Part shown: one piece after another, positions 23,254 to 41,108 of the stretch
Layout of the letters: each line of letters begins with the position of its first letter
Position numbering within the stretch: position 1 is the stretch's first letter
Assembly (NCBI GenBank): GCA_963742415.1
Contig: CAVULX010000003.1
Location: 374,616 to 438,615, forward strand
DNA length: 64,000 nucleotides
Direction: 5' to 3'
Source of the DNA: an uncultured Parachlamydiaceae bacterium
GTDB lineage: Bacteria > Chlamydiota > Chlamydiia > Chlamydiales > Parachlamydiaceae
Notes under the pieces: model-generated
Seen by the model: the letters and a program-made list of their open reading frames with translations, nothing else
Told to the model about the DNA's origin: nothing
Databases searched by the model: none
Made by a program: the position numbers and the translations under genes

Positions 23254-24609
23254 TTAAGGTTCGATATAGCCTTTAGGCAACATAGTTGATCCTCTCCATT
23301 TACGCATTAACTGGAGGGAAGGATAATAAAATTGTTGTGCCAATTCAAAGGGGTTTTCAGCAGACTCTTTCCCTGTGATCTCTTTCCAGATTTCCCTATC
23401 TCTCTGCTGCAAAGCCTCAGCCACCGTCACAGGGCTATCCACTCCTTTTGCGTTTTTAAGCGGGGAAAAGCAAGCTTCTCTAGGGTAAGCCAAAGCTTTG
23501 ACTTTTCGAGCAAAGGGCAATATGTCAAAGATGAATTTCTCCCCTTTCCATGCCATTAGCGGACTTGAGTCGGATTTATTTCCATTAACAGATTTATAGG
23601 CTAAATGAAAAGGCATTTCCCCATATTTTTCAGCCAACGCTTTGATGCTCTCCATGCTAAAGCAAAACAAACTCAAATTAGCGCATAGGTGTCTTAAACT
23701 TCCATCGGGTACGGCAGCATAACGTTCTTTTTCGGGCATTTCGGAGTATTCAACAACCTTGGCCCGATGTTGATCCTGGACAACAACCCCTACCTTTTCT
23801 TCTTTATCGCGCCGCATGCAACACTTGATCGTGATTTCATTATTTTGTCGAGCGTGAAAACCCAGTAGATTGGCATCGAAAGGATCTGCGAGAGGATTAT
23901 CAACTAACACGTAATTGACCAATTTGATGCCGGCGTCTTGCCAGGCTTTCCAAATCCCATCCTGGACAAAGTAATGTAGTGAAGAGCCATTCCCATCCGG
24001 TCCCTCAGCCAGAGAGCCTTGAGGATCCAAGAATAAGTTACCCTGCTCATTGAAGAGAGGAGACATTTTTTGCGAGAAAAAATAAAGTTGCTTTTCTGAA
24101 AGGCCAAAATTGCGATTTGAGAAAAAATAATTTTTTGTTTCTTCATCATTTAGAGGAGAAGTCATAATCGCTAAAGGGAGGGGGCGCCCGGCCAGTTCGC
24201 TTGCTGCCAAGGTTTTCTCAGCAAAAAGCTGAAACAAGGTTTTGCGCCTTATGGCTGTGACCGGAAACATCCCTTTAGGTCCTGCAAAATTTAGTCGAGT
24301 CCCTTGTCCCCCGGCTAACAACAGGGATCCACATTTTCCTTCACTTATCAATTGACGTCCCAAAGAGATATCTTGCGAGCTGCCTGCATTCTCATAGGCC
24401 TTGAAGGGTTCAAAGGAACCTGCATAAGGAAGATCTTTTTTTAAAAAAGCCGTTTTCAACACTCTGAAAATGTCTAGGTCAAGTTGATCAATTTGTTTTA
24501 GCAGACGATTTTGTTGATCAGCGGTAAGCTGCGGCCAAAAGTCGAGAAGACTTTGTTGACCTATTGTCGAAAGCTTATCTTTGGCAAGAGAGTAATTGAA
24601 ATATGTCAT
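23254..24609 (-). CDS. UDP-sugar pyrophosphorylase of the UDPGP (UAP1/eukaryote-like) family
   Basis: 451 aa. LLLAGGQGTRLNFAGPKGMFPV and GPDGNG motifs of the UTP-hexose-1-phosphate uridylyltransferase family. Confidence 0.75.
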   Translation of the reverse strand: MTYFNYSLAKDKLSTIGQQSLLDFWPQLTADQQNRLLKQIDQLDLDIFRVLKTAFLKKDLPYAGSFEPFKAYENAGSSQDISLGRQLISEGKCGSLLLAGGQGTRLNFAGPKGMFPVTAIRRKTLFQLFAEKTLAASELAGRPLPLAIMTSPLNDEETKNYFFSNRNFGLSEKQLYFFSQKMSPLFNEQGNLFLDPQGSLAEGPDGNGSSLHYFVQDGIWKAWQDAGIKLVNYVLVDNPLADPFDANLLGFHARQNNEITIKCCMRRDKEEKVGVVVQDQHRAKVVEYSEMPEKERYAAVPDGSLRHLCANLSLFCFSMESIKALAEKYGEMPFHLAYKSVNGNKSDSSPLMAWKGEKFIFDILPFARKVKALAYPREACFSPLKNAKGVDSPVTVAEALQQRDREIWKEITGKESAENPFELAQQFYYPSLQLMRKWRGSTMLPKGYIEP

Positions 24610-24614
24610 TAGGT

Positions 24615-25070
24615 CTATTCAAATTGCCGTTTAGTTTTAGGGTATCGCATGGTGGCCAACTCATCCAAGGCGTTCTTTTCTACGTTAAGGTTAAGAGTTT
24701 CCCATTCACCATATTTTTTGTCTCGCAAGTTTTCTATAATTTTCCGTTTTTGCATTGCCTTCATGACCTCTCTCCTTCTTAACTCTAAAATCGCTTGCGC
24801 TTCCCGAACGATAATTCGCTGGTGATCGATTTTCTTTTTAAGCACCTCTAAGTAATCGTAATTCATCGTCAAGGATTGGGGATGGACATTGTTTTTTTGC
24901 AAAACACGAATGTGATCTGTAACTCGATCAAAGTCGCGATGAAATTTTTCTAATATCATGGACATTTTTTGCAATATTAAATGGGCCTCAAGCAGGTTTC
25001 TGTGAGCGATTTCTTCCTTCAAATGCCTAACTTTAAGCAAGGAGGCGAGATTAAAATTAAATTTTTTCAT
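24615..25070 (-). CDS. fliJ: FliJ/SctO-family export-apparatus stalk protein
   Basis: 151 aa, all-helical, with FliJ-like features (NLASLLKVR..., MQKRKIIENLRDKK...DE). It overlaps the 3' end of the ATPase gene by 14 nt, which is the canonical fliI-fliJ arrangement. Confidence 0.7.
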   Translation of the reverse strand: MKKFNFNLASLLKVRHLKEEIAHRNLLEAHLILQKMSMILEKFHRDFDRVTDHIRVLQKNNVHPQSLTMNYDYLEVLKKKIDHQRIIVREAQAILELRRREVMKAMQKRKIIENLRDKKYGEWETLNLNVEKNALDELATMRYPKTKRQFE

Positions 25071-26406
25071 TCTTTACGATTTCTTTTAAAAGCTTTTGCG
25101 TCATCTCAAAAGCAAACGACTCATTTGTTCCTTGCGACAAAAAGGATCTAATTCGGCCAATTAACATCACAGCTTCGTCAATTTTAGCATTTGATCCAGC
25201 CACATAGGCGCCAATGTTGATCAAGTCTTCAGCATCTTTATACACCTGCAAAATATCCCTTAAACGACCGGCCATATAATATTGCTCGGGTGTCGTAATA
25301 GCCAGCATCAGCCTAGAAAGGCTCTGTAAGACGTCTATGGCAGGATATTGGTTGGCTGAAGCTAATTTCCTGGAAAGAACAATGTGTCCATCTAGTATCG
25401 CCCTTACGGTATCTGCAACAGGATCATTCATGTCATCCCCTTCAACGAGGATTGTATAGATCCCCGTAATGACCCCGTGGGCAGAATTTCCAGCCCGCTC
25501 TAAAAGTTTTGGCAAGGTTGCGAATACGGAAGGCGTATATCCCCGCGTGGCGGGAGGTTCCCCAATGGCTAAACCTATTTCTCGTAACGCCATAGCATAA
25601 CGGGTGATGGAATCCATCATGAAGACGACATTTTTTCCTTGATCTCGAAAAAATTCGGCAATAGCTGTTGCAGTGTAAGCCCCTTTCGTTCTTAGCAGCG
25701 CCGCTTGATCAGAGGTTGCGACTACAACCACTGAACGGGATAAACCTTCCGGTCCCAATTCCCGTTCGATAAATTCACGCACTTCCCTTCCACGTTCTCC
25801 GATTAAAGCGATCACGTTTATATCTGCAGTGGACATTTTGGCTATCATCCCCAAGAGGGTTGATTTTCCCAAGCCGGCGCCGGAGAAAATCCCTAATCTT
25901 TGCCCTCTTCCTATGGTGCAAGTGGAATCGATCGCTTTGATTCCGGTCGATAAAACTTCGGAAATTAATTTACGCTTGAGAGGGTGGGGAGGGGGAGCCA
26001 TGATAGGATAGTATTTTTCTGCTTTGATCGGCCCTTTGTCATCGATGGGATTTCCCACAGCATCCAGAATTCTTCCACACATTCTTTCCGATACAGCCAC
26101 CAAAGGGACTTTTTTTGTCGGATAGACTTCGGAGCCCGGCGCTATATGGGTCATTTCTCCTAAAGACATTAATAAGGATTTATTATCTTTGAAGCCAACC
26201 ACTTCACAAGGGATAGCTTCTCCCTGCCTATTGAAAATGTAGCACAACTCACCCAGGTGGACTGCAGGGCCGGCCGATTCGATAAGAAGACCGATGATTT
26301 GTGTGACAACGCCACTTGTGGATAATCCCGACCATTTTTGGACCGCTTCGATTTCATTTTTTAGTGAGAAAGTAGACATAAAAATTTTAAGAGATAAACC
26401 CATCAC
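25057..26406 (-). CDS. fliI: Type III export ATPase, flagellar type by context (FliI)
   Basis: Walker A GIFSGAGLGKSTLLG, Walker B VVFMMDSITR, and an F1/FliI/SctN-family C-terminus. It is flanked by fliH-like and fliJ-like genes. The start is ambiguous (GTG 26406, ATG 26403 or ATG 26379). Confidence 0.88.
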   Translation of the reverse strand: MMGLSLKIFMSTFSLKNEIEAVQKWSGLSTSGVVTQIIGLLIESAGPAVHLGELCYIFNRQGEAIPCEVVGFKDNKSLLMSLGEMTHIAPGSEVYPTKKVPLVAVSERMCGRILDAVGNPIDDKGPIKAEKYYPIMAPPPHPLKRKLISEVLSTGIKAIDSTCTIGRGQRLGIFSGAGLGKSTLLGMIAKMSTADINVIALIGERGREVREFIERELGPEGLSRSVVVVATSDQAALLRTKGAYTATAIAEFFRDQGKNVVFMMDSITRYAMALREIGLAIGEPPATRGYTPSVFATLPKLLERAGNSAHGVITGIYTILVEGDDMNDPVADTVRAILDGHIVLSRKLASANQYPAIDVLQSLSRLMLAITTPEQYYMAGRLRDILQVYKDAEDLINIGAYVAGSNAKIDEAVMLIGRIRSFLSQGTNESFAFEMTQKLLKEIVKNEKI

Positions 26407-26709
26407 TCAGGCTTATGTAGAAATATTTATATTCTCTTTTACTGTCAACCAAATGTTCAAACTAGGAGGGAGTTTACAAAGTCCTAAGTTCTTCATTATT
26501 AACATTCTTATTTTTTTCAGTTTTTTTAATATTTTAAAAAAAATCAAATCTTTTTTGTAAAGAAAAATCTATAATTTTTAACTAAAAATGGTTTAAAAAT
26601 GGGCTTTTTGATTTCAGTTTAAATAAAATATTATTATGTTATAATTATATATAGATTGTAGAGGATATATCGATTTTAAAAGCGTAAGCTTTTTGGAAGG
26701 AGAAAAATT
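26407..26709. promoter_or_regulatory. Very AT-rich divergent intergenic region, likely carrying promoters for fliI-fliJ (minus strand) and the small ORF at 26710 (plus strand)
   Basis: TATAAT hexamers at 26570-26575 and 26640-26645 on the plus strand, plus long A/T runs. No -35 element can be assigned with confidence in this composition. Confidence 0.3.
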
Positions 26710-27018
26710 ATGAGTTCCAATGTAAATAATACATCATCAAGCACAAGTGATCCACTTGATGATCTCGCAATTTTTTACACAAGTAATGCAAATAACAAAC
26801 AACAACAAGATTCGATGGATCCTACAGATCCTACCAGTATCATGTATGATCCCACTTTGGATCCTTGCAGTCCAAAATTTGGTGCCGTTAGCGCTGCAAT
26901 TAATGGCCCGCAAGCTGTTAATGCTGTGAATAACAACACGGTAAATCCTATAGCCGTTGATGATGATAACGATAGGGCTGGCCGGAGAAATTTACGCCGC
27001 GTGGTCGATAGGATCTAA
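26710..27018 (+). CDS. Small low-complexity (N/D/P/S/T-rich) hypothetical protein inserted antisense between fliH and fliI
   Basis: 102 aa. A strong RBS GGAAGGAG lies 8 nt upstream of the ATG. The sequence looks disordered and ends in the basic tail RAGRRNLRRVVDRI. Confidence 0.55.
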   Translation: MSSNVNNTSSSTSDPLDDLAIFYTSNANNKQQQDSMDPTDPTSIMYDPTLDPCSPKFGAVSAAINGPQAVNAVNNNTVNPIAVDDDNDRAGRRNLRRVVDRI

Positions 27019-27080
27019 AATAACTTCCACGTGTTGTTGTCCGTATCCATTCCCAAATTATAAGTAGGTGTTTTTTTTGT

Positions 27081-27782
27081 TTATGATGATAAAGTTAAAA
27101 TTTCCAAATCAGATAAAAGACGATTAAGGTCAAAATTGACCAGTCCTAATGTTGTTTCTAAGCGACAACTGCCCCTTTCCATCCAGGGTGTTGAGATAAA
27201 GTTGACATCTTTTAAATCTTCCCGTTTATAGCCGAGCGCAGAAAGGTGGTTTTGCACCATTTGCAGGTCTTCCTGCGATAAAACAATATCGATAGGGACA
27301 TCTTTTAAGAAGGACTTTGCTTGGGTCAATAATTTTTCTAATAAACTGTAAAAGATCTCTGGATTGGTTAAGTGAGCACGAAGTATTTTTTCGCAAACTG
27401 CCAAAGAAAATTTGATCAGTTCGGGCTTCACCAGCTCAAACATTTCTTCTTTTCTCATTTGAAAAGTTGAAGCGGTGACATTAAGGAGTTCGGCAGCTGA
27501 CTTTAATTCGTCCCTAACATTAGCCACACCTTCTTTATATCCAATCTCTAAGCCTTCGCTCTTGCCTGCTTCGTACCCTTGCTCATGCCCCTCTTTCAAG
27601 CCTTGAGAATGCCCTTTTTTTTCGGCCATTTTTAAGAGTTTTTGAAGTGTTTTTACAGAAGGGGGTTCTGAAGTCTGTTCTGCCTCTCCGTTCTCTTCTT
27701 TTACCCCTGAATCTTGTCCGTAAAAGACAGCCCCTTCAATCTTAGCCCCGTGGATCACTTTTTTAGATTTTGAGACGTTCAT
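27081..27782 (-). CDS. fliH: FliH/SctL-family ATPase regulator (flagellar type by context)
   Basis: 233 aa. Repeated GxEEG-type motif (KEGHEQGYEAGKSEGLEIGYKEG) and a C-terminal GSCRLETTLGLVNFDLNRLLSDL, matching the FliH/SctL signature. ATGA overlap with the fliF stop. Confidence 0.75.
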   Translation of the reverse strand: MNVSKSKKVIHGAKIEGAVFYGQDSGVKEENGEAEQTSEPPSVKTLQKLLKMAEKKGHSQGLKEGHEQGYEAGKSEGLEIGYKEGVANVRDELKSAAELLNVTASTFQMRKEEMFELVKPELIKFSLAVCEKILRAHLTNPEIFYSLLEKLLTQAKSFLKDVPIDIVLSQEDLQMVQNHLSALGYKREDLKDVNFISTPWMERGSCRLETTLGLVNFDLNRLLSDLEILTLSS

Positions 27783-29758
27783 GGGGCCTCGCCTTGCACT
27801 TCTTGCATAGCATGATGGAATTTATGTGAAATTTCAGGATTGAACATTTTTATTTTTTCAATGATGACCCGTTGATGCCTTTCGGGTAAGCTATTAAAGA
27901 TAGATGCAGCCACTTTGAAGCTCTCAGCCATTTTAAGTCCATACTCCAAAGAGGTTCCCCCCAAAATCCCTGGAAGAGATCCTAGTAATAGTTCAATCTG
28001 ATTCGGATCTGTTTCATCAAACTGAGCCATTTCCACCAGGACGTGAGCTTGCAAATCGATCGGCATCCTATTTAACACAACCGAAGCTCGCTCTTGAGGT
28101 AATGAATACAGGATTAAAGCAATGGTTTGAGGAGATTCCTGACCAAGAAATGCAGCAATTTTAGAAGGTTCCCCTTCAGTCAGAATTTGCTTAATTGACA
28201 GCGGTTCATCTGAGTGCCCTGTTTTTCCGTCATTCTTGCTCAGAATGTTTGGCCGATCTTCCAACTGGGCTTTAATTGCTTCTAGAACCCCTTCTAGATC
28301 TTCTAATCTTTTTTTCTTAGTTCCTTCTTCAGCGGCTTTTAAAACCGAAACCCTTTTGGAATGTTGTTGCACGCGGAACATCATATAGAAAATCCCGAAA
28401 ACGCCCAAAGTGATGATCGCCACAAGCGCTGTGGTTATCGAATTATTTTCCGACCCTGGGGAAATTGCCTCTATCATGACTGGAGGGGGAGGGATCGGCG
28501 TCCGGTCGAACTTAATAAAATTAACAGACTGCGAAACATGAGCTGTATATCCTTTGAGGATGACTTCGAGCTGACTTTCGATATTTTTCTTCAATTTTTC
28601 TTCATTCGAAGCAATCTGATTTTCGTTTTGCTCTACTCCTTTAGCCGGAGCAAAAATTTGGTCGTCGATTAACACACCTATCGATAAGGCATCTATTTTG
28701 CCGGGCACACTGGTAATTTTGACATGGTCTACGGGCACTGCCATTTGTCTAAACTGTTGCGTTGCGAATAGCTCGGGTTGATTCTGAGAGGAAGGATTGC
28801 CTCCGTTTTGTTCGGAAGATTTCGATTGCTCTTTTGCTTTAATCGGTTGCTCGCCTGTCTCAGAAATAGACGTGACAACGGACGACCCTAAGCTAACTCC
28901 GTCAACCGAGCCGGTGTAGACTTTTCTTTCTTCAGAAATTTTATTTCTATTCATTGTCACTTGCACAGTACTATAAAAGTTGCCTGCGCCCACCACAGTC
29001 GTTAGCATCCCATCAATTTTTGCTTTTAAATATCCTTCTGCAGATAACTCCGCATTGCGAATCGAATCCAAGCCCCCTTCAGGATCTATGGCTTGATAGA
29101 GGTGCCCATTAGTGTCGGAAATCGCCACCATATTCCCGGTAAGGCCTCTGACCGCTCCGGCAACATGAAAGGTAATGGCACGCAGTTCTTGAGAATTTAA
29201 ACGAGCGCCCGGTTTCAAGCTTAAGATGACAGAGGCTTTAGCTTTGTAGTTTGCAGCCCCAAAAGGACGGGGAGGGGGAACATCAAGAATGACGTTAGCG
29301 CTTCGTACATTCTCAAATTGGGAAATATCATTTTCAAGCTGCCCTTTAAGTGCCCTTAATTCAAGAACCTGGAGCTCTTTTTCCCCTTTAATCCACGTGC
29401 TGCTATCGAAAAGCTCAAATCCTTTTTTCGTTTGCGTTTTTGGCAATCCGTTGAAAGCCAACTCTGCTCGCACCTGGTGTTCTTTCTCTTTTGGAATCCA
29501 TATCCCTTTGTTTTCGGAAATTTTATAAGGAATATTTGCGCTTTCAAAATAGGCTTTAATTTGTGCAATATCAATGCTTTGCATCCGTTCAGGCGAATAC
29601 AGCATCACATAGTTCATTGAATTGGACATGATCAGCACGACCGTCCCTAGCAAAATAAGTAGCCCTAGAATAGCAGCAAAAGCGGTTTTTTGAGAAAGCT
29701 TAAGATCCAGCCAAAAAGTTTTTAGCTGCTGTAAAAAATTTGCGAAAAAGGAATACAT
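27779..29758 (-). CDS. fliF: FliF-type MS-ring protein with a fused C-terminal FliG middle-domain-like region
   Basis: 659 aa. N-terminal TM helix followed by a YscJ/FliF-type periplasmic domain (IAQIKAYFESANIPYKISENKGIWIPKEKEHQVRAELAFNGLP). Second TM helix ITTALVAIITLGVFGIFYMMF. The cytoplasmic tail contains FLGQESPQTIALILYSLPQERASVVLNRMPIDLQAHVL (compare FliG FLQSEHPQTIAVVLSYL...LPEELQTEVL) and ...NSLPERHQRVIIEKIKMFNPEI. Confidence 0.85.
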   Translation of the reverse strand: MYSFFANFLQQLKTFWLDLKLSQKTAFAAILGLLILLGTVVLIMSNSMNYVMLYSPERMQSIDIAQIKAYFESANIPYKISENKGIWIPKEKEHQVRAELAFNGLPKTQTKKGFELFDSSTWIKGEKELQVLELRALKGQLENDISQFENVRSANVILDVPPPRPFGAANYKAKASVILSLKPGARLNSQELRAITFHVAGAVRGLTGNMVAISDTNGHLYQAIDPEGGLDSIRNAELSAEGYLKAKIDGMLTTVVGAGNFYSTVQVTMNRNKISEERKVYTGSVDGVSLGSSVVTSISETGEQPIKAKEQSKSSEQNGGNPSSQNQPELFATQQFRQMAVPVDHVKITSVPGKIDALSIGVLIDDQIFAPAKGVEQNENQIASNEEKLKKNIESQLEVILKGYTAHVSQSVNFIKFDRTPIPPPPVMIEAISPGSENNSITTALVAIITLGVFGIFYMMFRVQQHSKRVSVLKAAEEGTKKKRLEDLEGVLEAIKAQLEDRPNILSKNDGKTGHSDEPLSIKQILTEGEPSKIAAFLGQESPQTIALILYSLPQERASVVLNRMPIDLQAHVLVEMAQFDETDPNQIELLLGSLPGILGGTSLEYGLKMAESFKVAASIFNSLPERHQRVIIEKIKMFNPEISHKFHHAMQEVQGEAP

Positions 29759-29875
29759 GATAAAGCTAACCTTATAAATTAAGAAGATAGCTTTTTATTT
29801 ACAGCAGATGGAACGGGAAATCAAACTAAATTTTTTAATTACCTTGGTTTCTTTGACTGTGAGGGTGTTTAAGTT

Positions 29876-30931
29876 CTAATGCTTCAGGATTTTTTGGAGC
29901 TCATCGTAGACCTCATCGACTCCGATCCTTTTCATGCAACGAAAGTCGATGGGGCAGACTCTTTTGTAGCATGGAGAGCATTCGACCCTCTTGTGGATCA
30001 CCTTTCCTAAATTATAGGGACCTGTTTGAACGTCGCTTGTCGATCCGAATAAAGCCAAAAGCGGAGTTCCTAGAGCTGCTGAGATGTGCATCGGTCCGCT
30101 ATCGTTCGTCAGTAAGACTTTACACAATTGAATGAGGGCCATTAACTCCCTTAAATTCGTTTTTCCGGCCAAGTTTAAGACTCTTGGGGGCAAGTCTTTG
30201 CATATCTCATTCACGAGCGGCGCCCCGGCGGGATCGCCAAAGAATAAAACGACATTTTTCGGTTCTTCCAATAAACGTTCTGCAATGTTGCGAAAACGGT
30301 CCGGCAACCAACATTTAGACGAGCCATAAGCGGCCCCGGGATTAATTCCGATGAGAGTATGAGTATCAGGTGAGGCTTTTAAATTGAGAAGAAGTTCCCG
30401 TGCCGCTTCCGTTTCTTCCTTACTCACATAAAGCTTTGGGGGGGTAGTGGAAAGTGGAATCCCCAGCGGCTGAAGCAACATCTTGTAAGTGATAACAAGA
30501 TGCTGTGTTTTTCTTTCTTTTGGAAAGGGAACCGCTTTATTGAGAAGCCAACTGCGGCAATTGCAGGTAAAACCAATCCGGTTGCCGACTTTCCCTCTCC
30601 AAAACCACCAAGCTGAAGAAAAGGAATTGGTAAGCAAAACACCCAAATCGTATTCTCCCCGTTGCAATGATTCAATGATTTCTAAGTGTTGCCAGCGGTG
30701 GATCCACCCACTAGGGCGGTGATAGCTATAGATTTCGTCGAGATGGGGGTCATGCTTTAAAAGAGCTGCGACATTGGATTGACACATGGCAGTTATACGA
30801 GATTCGGGCCAGCGTTTCCTGAGATCGGCTAAAACTGGAGTAGCCATCACGAGATCACCTAACCAATTCGGCATTCGAACAAGGATGTTTTTTGGTTCTT
30901 TCGGCGGCCAAGATTTTTCCTGAAATTTCAT
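29876..30931 (-). CDS. Family 9 glycosyltransferase, ADP-heptose:LPS heptosyltransferase (WaaF-like)
   Basis: 351 aa. ILVRMPNWLGDLVMATPVLADL, NDSGPMHISAALGTP, and a C-terminal Cys-rich CSPCYKRVCPIDFRCM typical of type II heptosyltransferases. Confidence 0.8.
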   Translation of the reverse strand: MKFQEKSWPPKEPKNILVRMPNWLGDLVMATPVLADLRKRWPESRITAMCQSNVAALLKHDPHLDEIYSYHRPSGWIHRWQHLEIIESLQRGEYDLGVLLTNSFSSAWWFWRGKVGNRIGFTCNCRSWLLNKAVPFPKERKTQHLVITYKMLLQPLGIPLSTTPPKLYVSKEETEAARELLLNLKASPDTHTLIGINPGAAYGSSKCWLPDRFRNIAERLLEEPKNVVLFFGDPAGAPLVNEICKDLPPRVLNLAGKTNLRELMALIQLCKVLLTNDSGPMHISAALGTPLLALFGSTSDVQTGPYNLGKVIHKRVECSPCYKRVCPIDFRCMKRIGVDEVYDELQKILKH

Positions 30932-31011
30932 ACTGTTTGCCTTGATTAAATCTTGCCTTCTATCATAATAGTATTATGCTAAAGTTGAAAGGATAAAAGG
31001 AGATATACCGC

Positions 31012-34000
31012 TTGACTAAGACAATTTATTCAGAGGAAGAGATTAAGCAAATTTTGCAAGCCATTTTTCTTGAAAAAAAGCATTCCAAAGATGTGAAGTT
31101 AAAATTGCAAGACAAGACCAATGAATGTGCTCGTTTGCAACATGAGCTTGAAGAACTTCAGAAAAAGATGCAAACGATCCCTTTAGATGATGTCCGCAAA
31201 TTGAAAAATCTCCTTTTTGCATTTAAGAAAAAACATGCCCAAGCCCTTTCCTCTATAGATGAAAAAAACAAACAGCTTGCTCAACTAACTCAAACAACTT
31301 CCGATATAGATGATTTAGAAAGTGAAAACCGTGCTTTAATCTCTCAAATATCAGCTATTAAAGAAAAATTTTACAAAATTCAAAACGCAGCCCCCTCGGA
31401 AAAAGAGATTAATGTCATCTCAGAAAAGTTCCAAGCAAAGTTGAATGCAGCTAACGAAATCTTAAATAAGGCTCAAGAAGAGCTCAACGAAGAGCAACAG
31501 GAAAAGGTCCATTTTAAAGCTAAGTTGGAGGAGATGACTTCTCTAAAAGAGCATTTCGAAAGACAAAACCTCGACTTAGTCCGGCAAGTTCATCATCTTG
31601 AGCCATTCAAAGAGATGACCTTGACAGCACAACAAAAGATGGCTGAATTTGAACGGATGAGGGAAGAGGATTTCGATGAAATTGAGAGCTTAAAAGAAAA
31701 AATTTCATCTAATACATTGACTGAAGACCAATTACATCTCATTGAAGACCTGAAAGAGCAATTACTTGAAATCAAAGGGGAAAACCAAACACTAACCCAC
31801 CAAGATCTGACCTTAAGGCAACGTTTTGAACAATCTGAAGGGGAACTCACCCTTGTTAAAGAAAAACATTTTCAACTTGCTGATAAATTAAAACACAGTG
31901 AATTGTGCCAAAGCGAAAATCTTCATCGAATTGAAGATCTCTTGATTCAAGTTAAGCAAATGGAGGTATTGAAAGCTTTCCTGACCCAAGAAGAGGAGCG
32001 AAATAAGGAATTAACCCAAGAACTGAATAAAATAAAAGAGTTCTCGCAAAAAGACCAGAAACAGATTGATGATTTGTTGTTTCAAACAAAACAAGTAGAA
32101 ACATTGAAATCTCTGTTGTCTCAAAGGGAAGAACGAAATAGAGAAATAACTCAAGAACTAAATAGAGTAAAAGAACTCTCTCAAGGAGACCGGCAGCAGA
32201 TTGACGATTTAGTGATTCAAACAAAGCAAATAGAGTCCTTGAAGTACTTGTTGGCTCAGCAAGAAGGAAAAAACAAAGAGTTATATCAAGAGCTGAATCA
32301 ACTAAAAGAACTCTTTGAAAATGAACATCTGCAAATTTCAGATTTGTTAATCCAAGCACAGCAAGGGGAAACACTCAAATCCTTACTGGCCCAACAAGAA
32401 GAAACAAATCAAGAATTGCATCAGGAGCTCAAACGAGCGAGAGAATTCTCTGATAGAGATCGCCAGCAAATTGAAGACTTGTTGGTCCAAGCAAAACAAG
32501 GGGAAACTTTCAAATCGTTGTTGGCTCAGCAGGAAGATATCAACAAAGAATTAAACCTCGAACTGAATCAAGCTAAAGAAATTTCTGAACGGGATCAACA
32601 TCATATCGAAGATCTGTTGCTTCATACAAAACAAATTGAGAATTTGAAATCCTTATTTGTTCAACAAGAAGAAGCAAATAACGAGTTGAATCGGGAGCTG
32701 CAACAAGCTAAAGAATTCGCTGAAAGAGATCGCCAGCGAATTGAAAAAATTGCCGCACAACTATTGGAAAAGGACAAAAAGATTTATGATTTGCAACATT
32801 TGGAAGTACGCCTTAAACGTCTGACTGAGCAAAAGCAAGCCATCGAACAAGAGTTAGAAAAAGTTCAAAATGAAGCCATAAACCGGGAAAATGTCCTCAA
32901 AGAACATCAACAACATCAAGTGCAATTAGAAAGGGTGATCCAATTTCTCAGAGAAAAATCGGAAGGGGCTCGTTTAGAAGTCACTTCCCTGCAAGAAGAG
33001 ATTCAGAAATCAGCAGAATCGTTTTTAAAGTTAACAAACGACTTGAAAACAACCAAAGAAGCGCACGATCAACTCGCAGAACAGCTGAAACACGAACAAG
33101 AAGAAAAACAAGAAGTGCATCAGGAGATTACTACCCTGCATTTGCAGGTGGAACAATTGCGAAGCCATCTCACTTCTACACAGCAAGAACTTAACGAACA
33201 ACAGTCTGGTTATGAAAAAGCTAAAAAACAGTTGGCTCAACTTGAATCCCAAAATCGGGTATTTTCCGAAACCATTTCCGAAAAAAACAAAAGTATCGAA
33301 TTTTTTGAAAAAGAGACAGCTCTGATCAAACAGTCGCTTATCCGTGGTTTGCGAGAAGCTAAAGAGCTTGAGGGGCATTATGCCGAAGTTGCCAAAGAAA
33401 AAGCCTCCATGCAAGCTAAACTGCACCAATCTCAACATCTCTTAGATAAACAAAGAAATGAGATCCACGAACTACAAGAAAAAATAAGAAGCGCCGAATC
33501 TAATACCTCATCGGCCTATCAGAATATTGAGCAGCTCAATCAACGGCTTGCTGAAAAGCAAACAAATCTTCAGCAACAAGAGGAAATAATTAAAGAAAAA
33601 GAAGCAACTTTACAAAGTCAGTTGCAACAAATCGAGCTCTTAAAACAGGAGCAATTATCTTTACAGGGAGGATTATCCCACGCTAAAAATATCATAGAAG
33701 AAAAAGAAAATGAGTTGACCCAAGCCCAGCACCATCTCGCCAAAAAAGTCAAAGAAGCAGCCCAGCTTGAAGACAAAAATGAGGAACAAAAACATTTAAT
33801 AGCAGAGCTTCAAGAGACCCTTGTAAAAAATAAAATCCGAATTGCTGAGTTGCAAACAAGCGTCGACATTCAAGAACAGCAATCCAAACAATCTCAAGAA
33901 CGGCTTCAAGAAGCCTTAAAAGCAGCTCGTACGCTTGAAACAAAATGGGAAGAAAAATATGGATCCCTTTCCGAAAAATGGGAAGCAGCTGAGGGTCGTA

Positions 34001-34257
34001 TCAAAGAACTTGAGAAAATCGAAGAAAAGCAAAAACATTTGCAAGGTTTGCTTTCAAGCCTAGGAAGTTTTTTTGAAGGCCCCATTCCGGCAACACCGGT
34101 AGAATCCTCTAAATCAACAAGGGGCTCGTTTTTAGAGGAACCCAGAAGGGCACCCCAACCGACAGAAAAGCCGCAAGAGCCTTCAAAGTCTCCCTATCAA
34201 AACCTTTTTAATATGCCCAAACCGCCAGGCCGACCACGCCAAAACTTTTTGGAGTAG
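31012..34257 (+). CDS. Giant coiled-coil protein with internal 45-aa tandem repeats and a Pro-rich C-terminal tail
   Basis: 1081 aa and almost entirely heptad-like (E/Q/K/L). TTG start 8 nt after AAAGGAG. No Walker motifs. The C-terminus is PIPATPVESS...PQPTEKPQEPSKSPYQNLFNMPKPPGRPRQNF. Confidence 0.8.
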   Translation: MTKTIYSEEEIKQILQAIFLEKKHSKDVKLKLQDKTNECARLQHELEELQKKMQTIPLDDVRKLKNLLFAFKKKHAQALSSIDEKNKQLAQLTQTTSDIDDLESENRALISQISAIKEKFYKIQNAAPSEKEINVISEKFQAKLNAANEILNKAQEELNEEQQEKVHFKAKLEEMTSLKEHFERQNLDLVRQVHHLEPFKEMTLTAQQKMAEFERMREEDFDEIESLKEKISSNTLTEDQLHLIEDLKEQLLEIKGENQTLTHQDLTLRQRFEQSEGELTLVKEKHFQLADKLKHSELCQSENLHRIEDLLIQVKQMEVLKAFLTQEEERNKELTQELNKIKEFSQKDQKQIDDLLFQTKQVETLKSLLSQREERNREITQELNRVKELSQGDRQQIDDLVIQTKQIESLKYLLAQQEGKNKELYQELNQLKELFENEHLQISDLLIQAQQGETLKSLLAQQEETNQELHQELKRAREFSDRDRQQIEDLLVQAKQGETFKSLLAQQEDINKELNLELNQAKEISERDQHHIEDLLLHTKQIENLKSLFVQQEEANNELNRELQQAKEFAERDRQRIEKIAAQLLEKDKKIYDLQHLEVRLKRLTEQKQAIEQELEKVQNEAINRENVLKEHQQHQVQLERVIQFLREKSEGARLEVTSLQEEIQKSAESFLKLTNDLKTTKEAHDQLAEQLKHEQEEKQEVHQEITTLHLQVEQLRSHLTSTQQELNEQQSGYEKAKKQLAQLESQNRVFSETISEKNKSIEFFEKETALIKQSLIRGLREAKELEGHYAEVAKEKASMQAKLHQSQHLLDKQRNEIHELQEKIRSAESNTSSAYQNIEQLNQRLAEKQTNLQQQEEIIKEKEATLQSQLQQIELLKQEQLSLQGGLSHAKNIIEEKENELTQAQHHLAKKVKEAAQLEDKNEEQKHLIAELQETLVKNKIRIAELQTSVDIQEQQSKQSQERLQEALKAARTLETKWEEKYGSLSEKWEAAEGRIKELEKIEEKQKHLQGLLSSLGSFFEGPIPATPVESSKSTRGSFLEEPRRAPQPTEKPQEPSKSPYQNLFNMPKPPGRPRQNFLE
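31930..32739 (+). repeat. Six in-frame tandem repeats of 135 bp (45 aa) inside the coiled-coil gene
   Basis: Units start at 31930, 32065, 32200, 32335, 32470 and 32605. Consensus is I(E/D)DLL.Q.KQ.E.LK.LL.QQEE.N.EL.QELN..KE.S..D.QQ. The copies are diverged. Confidence 0.9.
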
Positions 34258-36364: not shown

Positions 36365-36510
36365 AAAAAAATAAAAATGGGGAAAATGCTAGTTTTTATA
36401 GAATATCATTTTTCATGATATTTTAGTAAATCGTTTTACTTGCGACTTTTTTTGCTGCCTGATAGCATGCAACTTAATAACCTGTTACTTTAGATTTGTG
36501 GGATGTTGTC

Positions 36511-37500
36511 ATGATGCAAATAACTACAGTGAAGAATTTTTATCGCCCCTTTCCAACATTGACAAAACTTTTGTTATTTTTATGCTGCATTGGAATCTTT
36601 ACTAGTTGCGGAAGCCAAAAAGTCATTGTCAGTGGATTAAGCCAAAAAGAAGCGAATGAAATTATTGTATTTCTTGCCGGCAAAGGGATCGATGCCAACA
36701 AGGCTGAAACCACAGCAGCAGCGGGAGCTGGCGGGGCTAAAGTGCAGCTCTATGACATCTCAGTTGATCCCGTAAGAGCGATTGAAGCCATGGCGCTCCT
36801 CAACCAGGCCGGATTGCCAAGAACCCGCGGACAAAACTTATTGGAAATTTTCGGCAACGTCGGCTTAGTCCCCTCCGATTTGGAGCAAAAAATCCGGTAT
36901 GAAGCCGGGTTAGCAGAGCAGATTGCAAGCACAATCAGAAAAATTGATGGGGTTCTCGATGCCGAGGTGCAAATTTCTTTTCCTCAAGAAGATCCTCTTA
37001 ACCCAGGTAAATACATAGGCAAAATTACAGGCTCTGTCTTCGTAAAACATTCCGGAATTTTGGATGACCCAAATAGCCATTTGATCACCAAGATTAAAAG
37101 GTTAGTGGCTTCCAGCGTCACGGGATTAGATTATGATAATGTAACCGTCATCCCTGTCCGAGCACGCTATAATGAAATTCAACCAGGAACGACAGGTGTC
37201 TTAACCGAAGAAGAAAAACAATATGTCGACGTCTGGTCTATTATTCTCGCTAAAGATTCTGTGATGAGGTTTCAAATTATCTTTTTCTCCTTTGTCGTGA
37301 TCATTTTTATTTTGCTATCCTTTTTTGTCTGGATAGGCTGGAAAATTCATCCCCTCTTGAATCAATATGGAGGGTTCAGGGCCTTATTTCATTTGCATCC
37401 TCTTAAACTAAAAGAAACTCCTGAACAAAAAGAAGCTGAAACGAAAGAAGAAACCACTGCCGAAAAAGAAGAAACAGACAAAGATGTGGACATCACCTAA
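36511..37500 (+). CDS. sctJ: Type III secretion inner-membrane ring lipoprotein SctJ (CdsJ/YscJ)
   Basis: Lipobox IGIFTSC followed by GLSQKEANEIIVFLAGKGIDA, typical of the YscJ/PrgK family. C-terminal TM helix and an acidic tail. The ATG at 36511/36514 is preferred over the GTG at 36496. Confidence 0.88.
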   Translation: MMQITTVKNFYRPFPTLTKLLLFLCCIGIFTSCGSQKVIVSGLSQKEANEIIVFLAGKGIDANKAETTAAAGAGGAKVQLYDISVDPVRAIEAMALLNQAGLPRTRGQNLLEIFGNVGLVPSDLEQKIRYEAGLAEQIASTIRKIDGVLDAEVQISFPQEDPLNPGKYIGKITGSVFVKHSGILDDPNSHLITKIKRLVASSVTGLDYDNVTVIPVRARYNEIQPGTTGVLTEEEKQYVDVWSIILAKDSVMRFQIIFFSFVVIIFILLSFFVWIGWKIHPLLNQYGGFRALFHLHPLKLKETPEQKEAETKEETTAEKEETDKDVDIT

Positions 37501-37512
37501 TGGGGTTGAGCT

Positions 37513-38373
37513 ATGCAGCCAAAAAGTGCTGTTTTCATGAAGGTCTTAATTAATCGCTTTCATAAAGGATCTCTGCAATCACTTTTAGGGTGTTTTCCAA
37601 CGGAGGAAGCCAAAGAAATAGCCAATGTCGATGTCCCTTCGAATGACCCCTCCATTGGATTAAAAACGGCATCAGAAAAAATTTCTTCTATCGACTATAC
37701 TTGGTTTCTCCCTTCACTACAAAAGCTTTCTAAAAATGCGCAACAAACCGTTGCTGCTGCCTTTCCTGAACCCCACTCCTCCAAGCTCCTTCAAGCTCTA
37801 AATCTCCCCTCTTCTGCTGAAACTCCCAGCCCAATTGTAAAAAATTTTTTATTGTTAAAATGTTACAAAAACCTGCCCGGAGCCTCAGAGGTGTTACCCA
37901 AGCAATATTTACCTCAAACCCCCTTGAGCTTGATCTCCAGTATGAATAAGCGGGAGCTTGTGGAGGTGATCGATTTTCTTGGTCTTCACGATCTTGCAGA
38001 TGAACTCAAACATGTGGTCGATCAGAAAACATTAAAAAATGTCTACGCCTGCTTAAATGCCAAAGAACAACAATATCTGAAATATTGCATCCGTCAGAAA
38101 GAAAAGGTGGTTTTACCCAGTTTAGGGATCGAACGTTGGAGCGGCAATGTCGATAAGCTAAAAAGCGTCCTCCAAAGCAGAGGGATTATTAGGCTAGGCA
38201 AAGCTCTTTCTGGAGAGAATCCCGATTTCATTTGGCATGTTGCGCATAACTTAGATTCAAACAGAGGGCAAACTTTACTCAAGTATTATTCTGAAAAGCC
38301 TTTGACCAATATCACACCTGCACTCGCCCAACAAACACTTAACGTGATTAATATATTAAAAAAGAAAGAGTGA
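37513..38373 (+). CDS. T3SS-associated hypothetical protein in the position between sctJ and sctL (possible SctK-like cytoplasmic component)
   Basis: 286 aa with no recognisable motif. It is assigned only by conserved position inside the sctJ-sctL-sctRST operon, starting 12 nt after the sctJ stop. Confidence 0.6.
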   Translation: MQPKSAVFMKVLINRFHKGSLQSLLGCFPTEEAKEIANVDVPSNDPSIGLKTASEKISSIDYTWFLPSLQKLSKNAQQTVAAAFPEPHSSKLLQALNLPSSAETPSPIVKNFLLLKCYKNLPGASEVLPKQYLPQTPLSLISSMNKRELVEVIDFLGLHDLADELKHVVDQKTLKNVYACLNAKEQQYLKYCIRQKEKVVLPSLGIERWSGNVDKLKSVLQSRGIIRLGKALSGENPDFIWHVAHNLDSNRGQTLLKYYSEKPLTNITPALAQQTLNVINILKKKE

Positions 38374-38377
38374 AACC

Positions 38378-39028
38378 GTGAGCAAAAAGTTTTTTTCATT
38401 TATCCACGAAGGCAGTGTCCACATTTCCCCCAAAAAGAAAGTCGTTCCCAAAGAGGAATTTTCAAGGCTTGTTGACTCGTATGAAGTTCTAGAGCAAGTT
38501 AAAAAAGATGCCGAACAATATCGCATTGATGTGGCTGTCGAATGTGAACAACTCAAAGAACAGGCTCAAAAAGAAGGATTTGAAGAGGGGTATAAGAAGT
38601 GGCTTGAATACACCGCCCAGCTCGAAAATGAAATTGTTAAAGTCCGTCAAGACTTAGAAAAATTCCTCGTTCCGGTGGCTTTAAAAGCTGCTAAAAAAAT
38701 TGTTGGCAGGGAATTAGAAGTTTCAGAAGATGCTATTGTTGACATCGTCTCCAACTCTTTAAAAGCCGTTTCACAACATAAAAAAATTACCATCTATGTC
38801 AACAAAAAAGATCTTGAAGTCTTGGATAAATACCGCCCCCGCTTGAAGCAAATTTTCGAAAGTTTGGAAGTTTTATCTCTTAGAGAACGTGCTGACATAG
38901 CCCCCGGAGGTTCAGTCATAGAAACAGAAGGGGGCATTATTAATGCTCAGCTGGATAACCAGTGGAGAGCTTTAGAAAACGCTTTGGAAATTATCGTAAA
39001 GAAAAAGCAACCATCAGGTGAGCATTAA
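38378..39028 (+). CDS. sctL: Type III secretion stator/ATPase regulator SctL (CdsL/YscL)
   Basis: 216 aa. EGFEEGYKKWLE motif and C-terminal GGSVIETEGGIINAQLDNQWRAL (FliH/SctL signature). GTG start. Confidence 0.82.
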   Translation: MSKKFFSFIHEGSVHISPKKKVVPKEEFSRLVDSYEVLEQVKKDAEQYRIDVAVECEQLKEQAQKEGFEEGYKKWLEYTAQLENEIVKVRQDLEKFLVPVALKAAKKIVGRELEVSEDAIVDIVSNSLKAVSQHKKITIYVNKKDLEVLDKYRPRLKQIFESLEVLSLRERADIAPGGSVIETEGGIINAQLDNQWRALENALEIIVKKKQPSGEH

Positions 39029-39030
39029 TT

Positions 39031-39957
39031 ATGAGGATTTTCCCTTTTTACTTTAGAGGAGGTTCAACCCAGAATGGAATGAAGATTGCCTCCCTTTTTA
39101 CAATCAAGTCATTTTTTGTATGCTGTATTATTTTGGCCATGTTAGGGATGGTGCCTGAATCGCTTTATTCCCAAGCAGCTCCGGCCAGGCCAGCCCCTGC
39201 AGCAACCCCAGCGCCGGCAAAAGGAGCTCCGCAGCAAGCTAATCAAGCCGCCCAAAATGCTTTAAATGCTCCTTTTGACAATTTTAAAAGGCCTTCTGTC
39301 ATTACTCAAGCTGTAGCTTTGACCATCATGTCCTTGCTGCCTTTTATTATCATGATCTTAACCTCTTTTCTGAAAATTGTGATCGTCCTTTCCCTTTTAC
39401 GCAGCGCATTGGGGGTTCAACAAGCACCTCCTAACCAGATCATCAACGGGGTCGCATTTATGCTCAGCCTCTTTATTATGTATCCGACTGTTTTGAAAAT
39501 GTACGATGCTGCAGAAAAAGTCATCGTCGAAACACGAGCCCCAGACTCGATCCTGTCCCCTCAATCTTCTCAATACATAATCGAAGTCGCCGACCAAGCT
39601 AAAGAGCCTTTACGGGAGTTCCTGAAAAAAAATTCAGCGACAAAGCACCAAGCCCTATTTTATCGGATCGCTTACCGAATTTTACCCGAAAACTACCGCC
39701 CCACTTTAAAGCCTGATGATTTTATGATCCTTGTTCCTGCATTCATTACAAGCCAACTCAAAGAAGCTTTTGAGATCGGCGTGTTGATCTACATCCCCTT
39801 TTTCGTCATCGATCTTGTGACATCCAATGTTTTGCTTGCTATGGGGATGATGATGCTTTCTCCTGTGACGATTTCAATGCCCTTAAAACTGTTCTTGCTC
39901 GTGATGCTTGATGGATGGACGCTCTTGGTTGACGGTCTTGTTTCAACATTTAGATAA
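39031..39957 (+). CDS. sctR: Type III secretion export-gate protein SctR (CdsR/YscR) with a long Ala/Pro-rich N-terminal extension
   Basis: 308 aa. FliP/SctR core (LLPFIIMILTSFLKIVIVLSLLRSALGVQQAPPNQIINGVAF...), preceded by about 90 aa that include PARPAPAATPAPAKGAPQQANQAAQ. Confidence 0.9.
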   Translation: MRIFPFYFRGGSTQNGMKIASLFTIKSFFVCCIILAMLGMVPESLYSQAAPARPAPAATPAPAKGAPQQANQAAQNALNAPFDNFKRPSVITQAVALTIMSLLPFIIMILTSFLKIVIVLSLLRSALGVQQAPPNQIINGVAFMLSLFIMYPTVLKMYDAAEKVIVETRAPDSILSPQSSQYIIEVADQAKEPLREFLKKNSATKHQALFYRIAYRILPENYRPTLKPDDFMILVPAFITSQLKEAFEIGVLIYIPFFVIDLVTSNVLLAMGMMMLSPVTISMPLKLFLLVMLDGWTLLVDGLVSTFR

Positions 39958-39978
39958 ATCTAAAGGAGTAAAGGAAAT

Positions 39979-40254
39979 ATGTTCCAAACACAAGTCATCC
40001 AATTGGCTTATCAAGGTCTCCTTTTGATTCTCATCTTGTCTGCACCCCCGATCCTCATCAGTATGTTTTTTGGTATCCTTGTGGCGATCTTTCAAGCCGC
40101 GACACAAATTCAGGAGCAAACCCTCTCATTTACGATTAAACTAGTTGCTGTCACCTTGACGCTGATGTTTATGGGGGGATGGCTGGGGGCTCAAATCATG
40201 CAATTTGCGACCAATATTTTCACACACTTTCCCCAATGGAGCTTCAGCTCCTAG
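39979..40254 (+). CDS. sctS: Type III secretion export-gate protein SctS (CdsS/YscS)
   Basis: 91 aa with two TM helices. FliQ/SctS pattern (LLLILILSAPPILISMFFGILVAIFQAATQIQEQTLSF). Confidence 0.9.
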   Translation: MFQTQVIQLAYQGLLLILILSAPPILISMFFGILVAIFQAATQIQEQTLSFTIKLVAVTLTLMFMGGWLGAQIMQFATNIFTHFPQWSFSS

Positions 40255-40268
40255 GAAGGTTGAGGGCT

Positions 40269-41108
40269 ATGGGACAAGATTACGTCACCATTTTTATGAA
40301 TTCTGTCTTTGCCACAGGGGAAGTGACAGGATTATTGACCTTATTTTTTCTATTTTTAGCCCGGATGCTCCCGATTATCGCCTTGTCCCCCTTTTTTGGA
40401 GCACGCGTCTTGCCCCATCCAGTGAAGGTGTGTTTTGCCATTTCCCTTTTTGTCATCATGCTGCCCCAGCTATTGCTAGTGACGACCACGCATCTTGAAT
40501 TCAACTTTATGGCTCTTCTTTATCTTGTCAAAGAACTTTTTGTGGGATTTGCCTTAGGGTACCTTATCAGCATGCCGTTTATCATCGTGCAAAATGCCGG
40601 CATCATCATCGACCACCAACGGGGGGGGGCTAGCTTAATGGTCAATGACCCGACCATTCAAAACCAATCCTCCCCACTAGGAACCCTCTTTAACTTTGTT
40701 TTGATCTATATATTTTTTACTATCGATGGTCCCTTTCTCTTTATCGATGCGATCGTTTCTTCTTATGAATTGATCCCTCCAGACCAATTTTTTAATACCC
40801 ATTTCTTTTTCAAGGGTTCCGAATTTTGGCAAATGCAGATGCAGATGTTAAACAAAGTGATGATCATTTCTATTCGGCTAGCAACACCCGCCCTCCTCGC
40901 CATTTTAATGACAGATACGTTTTTAGGAATTGCTAACCGTTTGGCCCCGCAAGTGCAAATTACCTTTTTAGGGATGCCATTAAAATCCCTTCTGGCACTG
41001 ACAGTAATTTGCTTTGGATGGAGGCTATTTTCTGAAGAGCTTGTCAGGCTATCTTACGAATGGATTAACCTCTGTAAATACATGATCACGATGTTCAAGC
41101 CGCCTTAA
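40269..41108 (+). CDS. sctT: Type III secretion export-gate protein SctT (CdsT/YscT)
   Basis: FliR/SctT-like multi-TM protein (LARMLPIIALSPFFG...). I prefer the ATG at 40269 (AGGAAGG upstream). Alternatives are 40236 or the ORF-track start at 40179. Confidence 0.85.
   Translation: MGQDYVTIFMNSVFATGEVTGLLTLFFLFLARMLPIIALSPFFGARVLPHPVKVCFAISLFVIMLPQLLLVTTTHLEFNFMALLYLVKELFVGFALGYLISMPFIIVQNAGIIIDHQRGGASLMVNDPTIQNQSSPLGTLFNFVLIYIFFTIDGPFLFIDAIVSSYELIPPDQFFNTHFFFKGSEFWQMQMQMLNKVMIISIRLATPALLAILMTDTFLGIANRLAPQVQITFLGMPLKSLLALTVICFGWRLFSEELVRLSYEWINLCKYMITMFKPP

Follow-up and report, generated by a model that had tools for sequence, protein, structure and literature searches.

What do flagellar-type export genes do in a chlamydia that has an injectisome as well? 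For the non-motile chlamydiae, in which a few such genes occur, this question goes back to the first Chlamydia genomes, and it is raised again by a 64,000-nucleotide stretch of DNA (hereafter, the window) from an uncultured Parachlamydiaceae bacterium (GenBank assembly GCA_963742415.1, contig CAVULX010000003.1, positions 374,616 to 438,615), in which fliF, fliH, fliI, and fliJ lie together on the minus strand. Our genome-wide analysis indicated that these four genes belong to a set of twelve flagellar-type genes (~11.8 kb) at four separate loci, all intact. Judged from its genes alone, this set probably encodes a working, non-motile export machine that was inherited vertically from a flagellum and stripped of the parts that build one.

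The source genome (G000) is a 2.69-Mb assembly of four contigs (C1 to C4), and the window corresponds to G000:C3:374616-438615. Contig C1 is chromosomal, since it carries orthologs of PolA and Rho, and a search of this contig for a plasmid match returned none. Comparisons included G293, a sister genus of the same family (96% complete, 2 contigs), and G056, a fragmented assembly (~500 contigs) from another family. Distribution was sampled in 150 genomes of the order, and in 400 genomes for the full-length fused FliF described below. Family identity was scored with NCBIfam/TIGR and Pfam models against their curated cut-offs.

A flagellar-type locus in the window

The map of open reading frames (ORFs) and the family scans confirmed the four genes, on the minus strand, at the positions given in the initial annotation:

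27779 to 29758, minus strand: fliF fused to a FliG middle domain (fliF::fliG_M), MS-ring protein of 659 amino acids; TIGR00206, 152.6 bits (cut-off, 129.75), with PF01514, PF08345, and PF14841
27081 to 27782, minus strand: fliH, stator/regulator of the export ATPase, 233 amino acids; PF02108, 41.9 bits (cut-off, 24.1)
25057 to 26406, minus strand: fliI, flagellar-type export ATPase, 449 amino acids, GTG start; TIGR03497 (FliI_clade2), 635 bits (cut-off, 629.8)
24615 to 25070, minus strand: fliJ, coiled-coil stalk of the ATPase complex, 151 amino acids; TIGR02473, 57.1 bits (cut-off, 50.45), and PF02050, 48 bits

None of the four genes is pseudogenised. The end of fliF shares 4 nt with the start of fliH, and fliI shares 14 nt with fliJ. 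The best NCBIfam matches of FliH were all FliH models, none of them above its cut-off (best, 85.5 against 180). FliI, beside which the model scans of the window ORFs found its partners FliH and FliJ encoded, carries a P-loop (GLGKST), a Walker B motif (VVFMMDS), and a GERGRE catalytic region, and is probably translated from the ATG of codon 10.

With the SctN model TIGR02546, FliI scored 578.7 bits, under the cut-off of that model (604.75). In a tree of 26 chlamydial type III secretion system (T3SS) ATPases and E. coli FliI, rooted with V-type subunits, the window protein fell within a clade of ten ATPases from fliF...fliJ loci (support, 86/94), four of which are encoded in genomes containing rod and hook genes; its nearest relatives were the proteins of G056 (95/86) and then G293 (93/90). 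The SctN clade was separate (90/90) and held the SctN of G000 itself. With the ATPase thus kept apart from SctN, the earlier view that these genes are flagellar-type and not injectisome paralogs holds. In the models and the ATPase tree, the window genes at 24615-29758 score and cluster as flagellar rather than as Sct proteins, no dedicated secretin search having been made.

A complete second export gate

The initial annotation had also suggested an export platform besides the injectisome, and a complete set for one emerged once the whole genome was searched:

C4:839584-844665: flhB (354 amino acids), flhA (690 amino acids), and a gene for an FlhF-type GTPase (442 amino acids)
C4:198715-201273: fliO-fliP-fliQ-fliR
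C3:445379-445711: fliE, 110 amino acids; weak match to TIGR00205 (19.8 bits)

FliP, FliQ, FliR, FlhA, and FlhB are second copies, distinct from SctRSTUV. FlhA scored 820.9 bits with the flagellar model TIGR01398 (cut-off, 772.1) versus 582.6 with the injectisome model. For FlhB, FliP, FliQ, FliR, FliO, and FlhF, the flagellar model was the top-scoring one each time. Below their flagellar cut-offs, FlhB reached 260.1 bits versus 230 with the injectisome model, FliQ 77.7 versus 45, and FliR 123.6 versus 72, and FliO (43 bits) and FlhF (132 bits) had no injectisome match. The best PDB matches of FlhB were flagellar FlhB proteins (141 bits, versus 72 for SpaS). Among the 150 genomes of the order, a second, flagellar FlhB was observed only in the 11 genomes with a full-length FliF, plus G000. 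FliE homologs (28-38% identity) were found only in genomes with a full-length FliF.

A fusion of FliF with the FliG middle domain

The C-terminal part of FliF is a FliG middle domain, which had been overlooked in the initial annotation (PF14841, 62.3 bits, residues 531-590). Ahead of this domain lie two membrane helices (residues ~23-45 and ~440-462) and a complete periplasmic part, with the FliF-specific periplasmic domain present (PF08345, 33.6 bits; cut-off, 23.8). The fused segment is as follows:

27809 to 28201, minus strand: FliG middle-domain segment, FliF residues ~520-650, TIGR00207 positions 114-238

PDB matches of this segment were FliG M domains (e.g., 1LKV). Alignment to E. coli and chlamydial FliG showed that ESPQ replaces the FliM-binding motif EHPQ, that the FliG N-terminal domain is also absent, and that the fusion protein stops right ahead of the hinge to the C-terminal (torque) domain. 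In a TARA genome, the order is fliF-fliG-fliH-fliI-fliJ; in G000, the first two of these genes are fused. The same fusion was found in G293 and in many metagenomic proteins and is therefore not an assembly artifact. The close relatives of this FliF are all chlamydial (e.g., Chlamydiales, Waddliaceae, and Simkania records and SAG AB-751-O23), and the full-length fused form was restricted to G000 and G293 among the 400 genomes, that is, to one of the 48 other family members. A FliF-FliG(M) fusion has been published for the Chlamydiaceae, in which FliF has ~330 amino acids and is without part of the periplasmic region (Bergeron 2016, PMC4768692); judged by its domain content, the G000 protein is a fuller form of this known fusion. 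In Salmonella, artificially made fusions of FliF with FliG retain function (cited in PMC4768692; PDB 8Z4D).

Apparent loss of the rod, hook, filament, and motor

Genes for the rod, hook, filament, stator, and FliM/FliN, which had been reported as absent from the window, were also not found across the 2.69-Mb assembly. Models of the N- and C-terminal rod/hook regions (PF00460 and PF06429), flagellin (PF00669), and FliG_C gave no significant match in G000. Among the hidden Markov models (HMMs) of chlamydial proteins searched against G000, those of FliL, MotB, FlgB, and FlgC had no match, that of FliG found only the FliF fusion, and those of FliM and FliN, like FliMN_C, matched only SctQ. The best match of the MotA HMM in G000, at 24 bits versus >500 for true MotA, is probably a TolQ-type protein. 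FliE is the only axial part present in G000.

In flagellated chlamydiae, fliE is preceded by the rod genes in the order ung-flgB-flgC-fliE. In G000, ung is followed by 196 bp and then fliE, and neither tblastn with the FlgB and FlgC proteins of five chlamydiae nor the HMMs found anything of flgB or flgC. The loss of flgB and flgC from the conserved ung-fliE site, with fliE kept, thus points to targeted loss after vertical descent.

These results bear on whether the bacterium builds a real flagellum, the remaining genes of which fall into gaps of the assembly or have diverged beyond detection. Full flagellar gene sets occur in some chlamydiae (PMC5604735), and the G000 assembly, with its four contigs, completeness score of 84%, and indel errors, would leave room for missed genes. 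However, flgB and flgC are absent from a syntenic site that is itself intact, and the HMMs for chlamydial FlgB, FlgC, FliL, MotA, MotB, FliM, and FliN find no ortholog. The FliG torque domain was lost through a fusion that is common to G293, and a search for rod genes in G293, at 96% completeness and in 2 contigs, likewise found none. FlhB, moreover, appears unable to switch to filament-type export, as described below. A real flagellum is very improbable on this evidence.

A FlhB without its cleavage motif

The NPTH motif is the self-cleavage site of FlhB and acts as a substrate-specificity switch. In Salmonella, the FlhB variant N269A undergoes no cleavage, exports no flagellin, and forms polyhooks, being locked in rod-/hook-type export (PMC7771051). 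The motif, in the form N-P-(T/V/I)-H, was kept in all 10 genomes with rod genes. G000 has ADEMKFA where flagellated chlamydiae show ANP(T/V/I)H(Y/F)A, the residues at the site being D-E-M-K in G000, D-C-D-K in G293, and E-G-V-H in G056; SctU of the G000 injectisome retains NPTH. The motif is likewise missing from ~22 of the 26 nearest FlhB relatives in metagenomes, with different residues each time and conserved flanks. Since there is nothing to build beyond FliE, the switch would be of no use to such a machine.

The injectisome of the same genome

A separate injectisome cluster (sctJ-sctL-sctRST) had been described in the window and proved to be real, as part of the canonical type III system of chlamydiae, so that the window holds two FliH/SctL genes and two ring proteins:

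36496 to 41108, plus strand: injectisome sub-cluster, consisting of sctJ, a 286-amino-acid ORF, sctL, sctR, sctS, and sctT
36496 to 37500, plus strand: sctJ, which passes an injectisome model
38378 to 39028, plus strand: sctL, which passes an injectisome model

Passing scores in the sub-cluster were 175.7 bits for TIGR02544 (cut-off, 162), 287.7 for NF004968 (220), 230.2 for TIGR01102 (208.6), and 95.6 for TIGR01403 (76.5). SctR and SctS also pass injectisome models, and SctT, at 141.5 bits, is below the cut-off (163.05) of its best-scoring model, TIGR01401. Elsewhere in the genome, sctU, sctV, a putative CopN-like gene (assigned solely by its place in the gene order), and a chaperone gene are located at C2:77028-81987, and sctN and sctQ on C4 near 1.08 Mb.

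With both systems in one genome, the flagellar-type proteins might, instead of building a machine of their own, serve as parts donors that join the injectisome or control it at particular points of development, as has been proposed for Chlamydiaceae. [quoted passage not shown] The FliG middle domain of G000 is without FliM and FliN, SctQ is the only FliM/FliN-family protein in this genome, and a contact from FliF-FliG to SctQ has been proposed by Bergeron (PMC4768692). However, the complete second gate, together with its own ring, FliE, FliH, and FliJ, makes borrowing needless, and G293 retains FliM and FliN of its own.

The state of sctN (C4:1081548-1082868) could also be taken as support for such a hybrid. 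Four +1 frame breaks interrupt this gene within the first ~150 codons, which at face value would leave FliI as the sole intact T3SS ATPase. We rejected a real sctN pseudogene with FliI as its substitute, since the remaining 300 codons are intact and almost unchanged relative to the sister genus (near-zero branch length) and the orthologs of Rho, PolA, NuoF, NuoG, and GlgB (named by eye from the G293 ortholog sequences) are broken in the same clustered way; the breaks are thus probably an assembly error. Such clustered frame breaks occurred in 6 of 160 sampled G000 orthologs (~4%). Furthermore, the closeness of the fli locus to the injectisome cluster (7 kb), which the initial annotation had pointed out, is not regarded as meaningful, as the two loci are ~400 kb apart in G293 and their spacing is not conserved. 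Taken together, a role of these proteins as parts of the injectisome seems unlikely.

Two further proteins lie close to injectisome genes. A 227-amino-acid ORF at window positions 41165-41848, just past the injectisome cluster, shows at its C terminus a weak match to a PEP-CTERM-like motif (17.8 bits, under the cut-off), which would be unusual in a chlamydia. A 523-amino-acid protein near sctU (C2:72855-74426) resembles, by eye, eukaryote-type F-box/leucine-rich-repeat proteins and is a candidate effector.

Conservation and distribution of the gene set

Between G000 and G293, sequence identity was 77% for FliQ, 75% for FlhA, 74% for FliP, 71% for FliI, and 67% for FliE, so that these proteins exceed 68-87% of the sampled orthologs in conservation (165 orthologs; median, 63%). 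FliR (59%) and FlhB (54%) were among the less conserved proteins. Synteny in G293 is as in G000, with fliFG-H-I-J followed by a UDPGP-family gene, fliOPQR-csrA-ybjN, ung-fliE, and flhA-flhF; G293 additionally keeps a divergent fliM-fliN pair. G056 has separate fliF and fliG genes, fliM, fliN, fliE, and the gate genes, with an FlhB that is without the N-P of the cleavage motif; rod genes were not detected in this fragmented assembly. G056 may represent an earlier stage of the same reduction.

A FliF match was found in 19 of the 150 genomes of the order, 10 of which also have rod/hook genes. Members of family f30 possess a short FliF-FliG_M, FliH, FliI, FliJ, and flagellar FliP and FlhA, with no full second FlhB. 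In one f30 genome (G196:C1:27618-28274), a 236-amino-acid frame just upstream of a flagellar-type flhA matches only the membrane part of FlhB, and the whole cytoplasmic switch domain seems to have been lost. In the small f35 genomes, the operon is arranged identically and includes a weakly FliH-like ORF and an ORF of the size of fliJ, and a second FlhA is also encoded; the f35 proteins pass NF004606 and NF004578, models that we take to be built on Chlamydia, so that f35 is probably Chlamydiaceae. The claim that the four-gene module of the window is more complete than that of Chlamydiaceae therefore did not stand, the order fliF(-fliG_M), fliH-like, fliI, fliJ-like, and UDPGP being the same in f30 and f35, although the f35 form of the module is degenerate. 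The module is thus shared across the order, and G000 and G293 stand out by having a complete gate together with FliE and FlhF in the absence of any axial or motor parts. The accessible papers mention only 'few cytoplasmic' flagellar genes in Chlamydiaceae or 'semicomplete to complete' sets in marine lineages, and we found no description of the above combination in them.

This distribution also allows the gene set to be viewed as a non-functional relic, a flagellar remnant heading to loss and retained by chance. Its occurrence is patchy, with FliF recognizable in one of 48 other family genomes and ~10% of the order; a reduction series toward the very small Chlamydiaceae-type set is visible, and FliM and FliN were apparently lost since the split from G293. 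Nevertheless, twelve genes remain intact at four loci while flgB and flgC are gone from the site conserved in other chlamydiae, conservation of the gate proteins between the two genera exceeds that of ~70-85% of the sampled orthologs, and the same reduced set recurs in G293 and in many metagenomic contigs. We accordingly regard chance retention as quite improbable.

Several observations nevertheless weigh against a working, vertically inherited export machine. Part of the set is less conserved between G000 and G293 (FliO, 47%; FliF, 45%; FliJ, 40%; FliH, 34%; FlhF, 33%). Several gate proteins fall slightly short of the curated flagellar cut-offs, FliP for example scoring 210.4 bits against a cut-off of 217.45 (170 with the injectisome model). 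The incomplete G000 assembly has clustered indel errors, so that absences mean 'not found in the assembly'; this concerns FliM and FliN, which are present in G293 yet were not found in G000. In addition, G000, G293, and G056 form one cluster in the FliI tree, so that the association of NPTH loss with rod loss may go back to only one or two events in evolution.

A possible mode of action

In the export machine that we favor, FliF would form an inner-membrane ring around the FliPQR-FlhB-FlhA gate, with FliE as its cap, and export would be driven by FliH-FliI-FliJ together with the proton motive force. FlhF would position the machine in the cell. Without NPTH, FlhB would be held in a fixed 'early-substrate' mode, in which one class of proteins might be exported across the inner membrane and no axial structure would be built. 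The fused FliG middle domain might offer a docking site, to FliM/FliN in the sister genus and to SctQ, or nothing, in G000. Erhardt and Hughes are said to have reported in 2010 that flagellar export in Salmonella can do without the C ring when export components are up-regulated, which makes a machine without FliM and FliN plausible.

Relation to known systems

The cryptic flagellar set of Chlamydiaceae consists of FliF-FliG (CT719/Cpn0860), CT718/Cpn0859, FliI (CT717/Cpn0858), and FlhA (CT060) (Stone 2010, PMC2830194; Bergeron 2016, PMC4768692). The G000 set resembles it in the operon order of f35, the kind of FliF-FliG_M fusion, the second FlhA, and a non-motile host with a full injectisome. 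In contrast to it, FliF is full length in G000 (659 amino acids versus ~330), and FliH and FliJ are readily recognizable. Compared with the f35 genomes searched, in which FliOPQR, FlhB, FlhF, and FliE are absent or not evident, G000 has a superset that includes these proteins.

Flagellated chlamydiae (Collingro 2017, PMC5604735; TARA genome L011) share with G000 the chromosomal contexts ung...fliE and fliF-...-fliJ, with identities of 67-72% for FliI, 45-48% for FliF, 34-38% for FlhB, and 28-38% for FliE. Unlike G000, they possess a separate full-length FliG, FliM/N, FliL, MotAB, FlgB/C, hook and chemotaxis genes, and a FlhB with NP(T/V/I)H. The export apparatus of Salmonella and E. coli has the same gate, ring, and ATPase-complex components, and the natural FlhB of G000 resembles the N269A mutant (PMC7771051). 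G000 differs in that it lacks FliK and a C ring and has no axial structure to assemble, with only the middle domain of FliG present in the fusion.

Buchnera aphidicola, according to work attributed to Maezawa in 2006 and to Toft and Fares in 2008, reportedly bears filament-less basal bodies, being a non-motile intracellular bacterium whose export genes are kept under selection, presumably for a protein exporter. Its rod, hook, and outer rings are said to be kept, whereas the G000 system ends at FliE and coexists with an injectisome. G000 is also comparable with the inner-membrane-only stage that has been postulated in the origin of the injectisome and with the reduced T3SS of the Myxococcus type, both flagellum-derived export cores without motility parts and with no secretin of their own (Abby and Rocha 2012, PMC3459982). 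The G000 proteins are still of the flagellar type and outside the non-flagellar T3SS clade, and the G000 system would have arisen by a separate and more recent reduction, in a lineage already equipped with an injectisome.

It is conceivable, although we put this forward only tentatively, that the G000 system represents a second, independent conversion of a flagellum to an exporter, analogous to the postulated first step in injectisome evolution, and an intermediate that explains the origin and role of the cryptic FliF, FliI, and FlhA in pathogens. The hallmarks of such a conversion would be the full-length FliF-FliG_M fusion, FliE as the sole axial part, and the non-switching FlhB.

Neighboring genes

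The following features adjoin or interrupt the flagellar-type loci:

26407 to 27080, no strand: AT-rich gap of 674 bp between fliH and fliI
23254 to 24609, minus strand: UDPGP-family sugar-nucleotide pyrophosphorylase (PF01704)
C4:197547-198325: csrA and a YbjN-family gene, immediately following fliOPQR

The gap holds a low-complexity ORF of 102 amino acids on the plus strand (26710-27018), for which a family match was sought and none found, and sigma-70-like hexamers in both orientations. The gap and its ORF are specific to G000, fliH and fliI being adjacent in G293, G056, G244, and the TARA genome. The matches from a promoter/terminator scan of 24000-31200 were dismissed, because they did not outnumber those obtained with shuffled sequence. 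The UDPGP gene, which begins 5 nt past the fliJ stop, is conserved downstream of fliJ in four families (f1, f29, f30, and f35; synteny in G293, G244, G111, G132, and G035). It may be co-transcribed with the fli genes and is not part of the export machine.

Linkage of fliOPQR with csrA and the YbjN-family gene was also seen in G293, G041, and G056 and is kept in the reduced genomes, and csrA also follows fliP in flagellated chlamydiae; the YbjN fold resembles the type III chaperone fold. CsrA was considered as a flagellum-only marker and discarded, as it was present in all flagellated genomes but in others too (30 of the 150 genomes of the order). Similarly, a 131-amino-acid ORF between fliE and tatC (C3:444800-445195) was discarded as a FliE chaperone, as it belongs to a widespread conserved chlamydial family (277 matches, up to 78% identity); a Pfam match was sought for it and none found. 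Upstream of fliF, a 1081-amino-acid ORF at window positions 31012-34257 lies within a region of strong AT skew (up to 0.35), and its sole match was a weak one to AAA_13.

Implications

G000 and its sister genus are intermediate between the flagellated marine chlamydiae and the minimal set of Chlamydiaceae. Their export core has been retained under selection while the motility parts are gone and the FlhB switch is dead, which points to protein export as the selected function. Collectively, these genomes would provide a natural example of the reduction of a flagellum to a secretion device, and one that helps to account for the enigmatic 'flagellar' genes found in pathogens among the chlamydiae.

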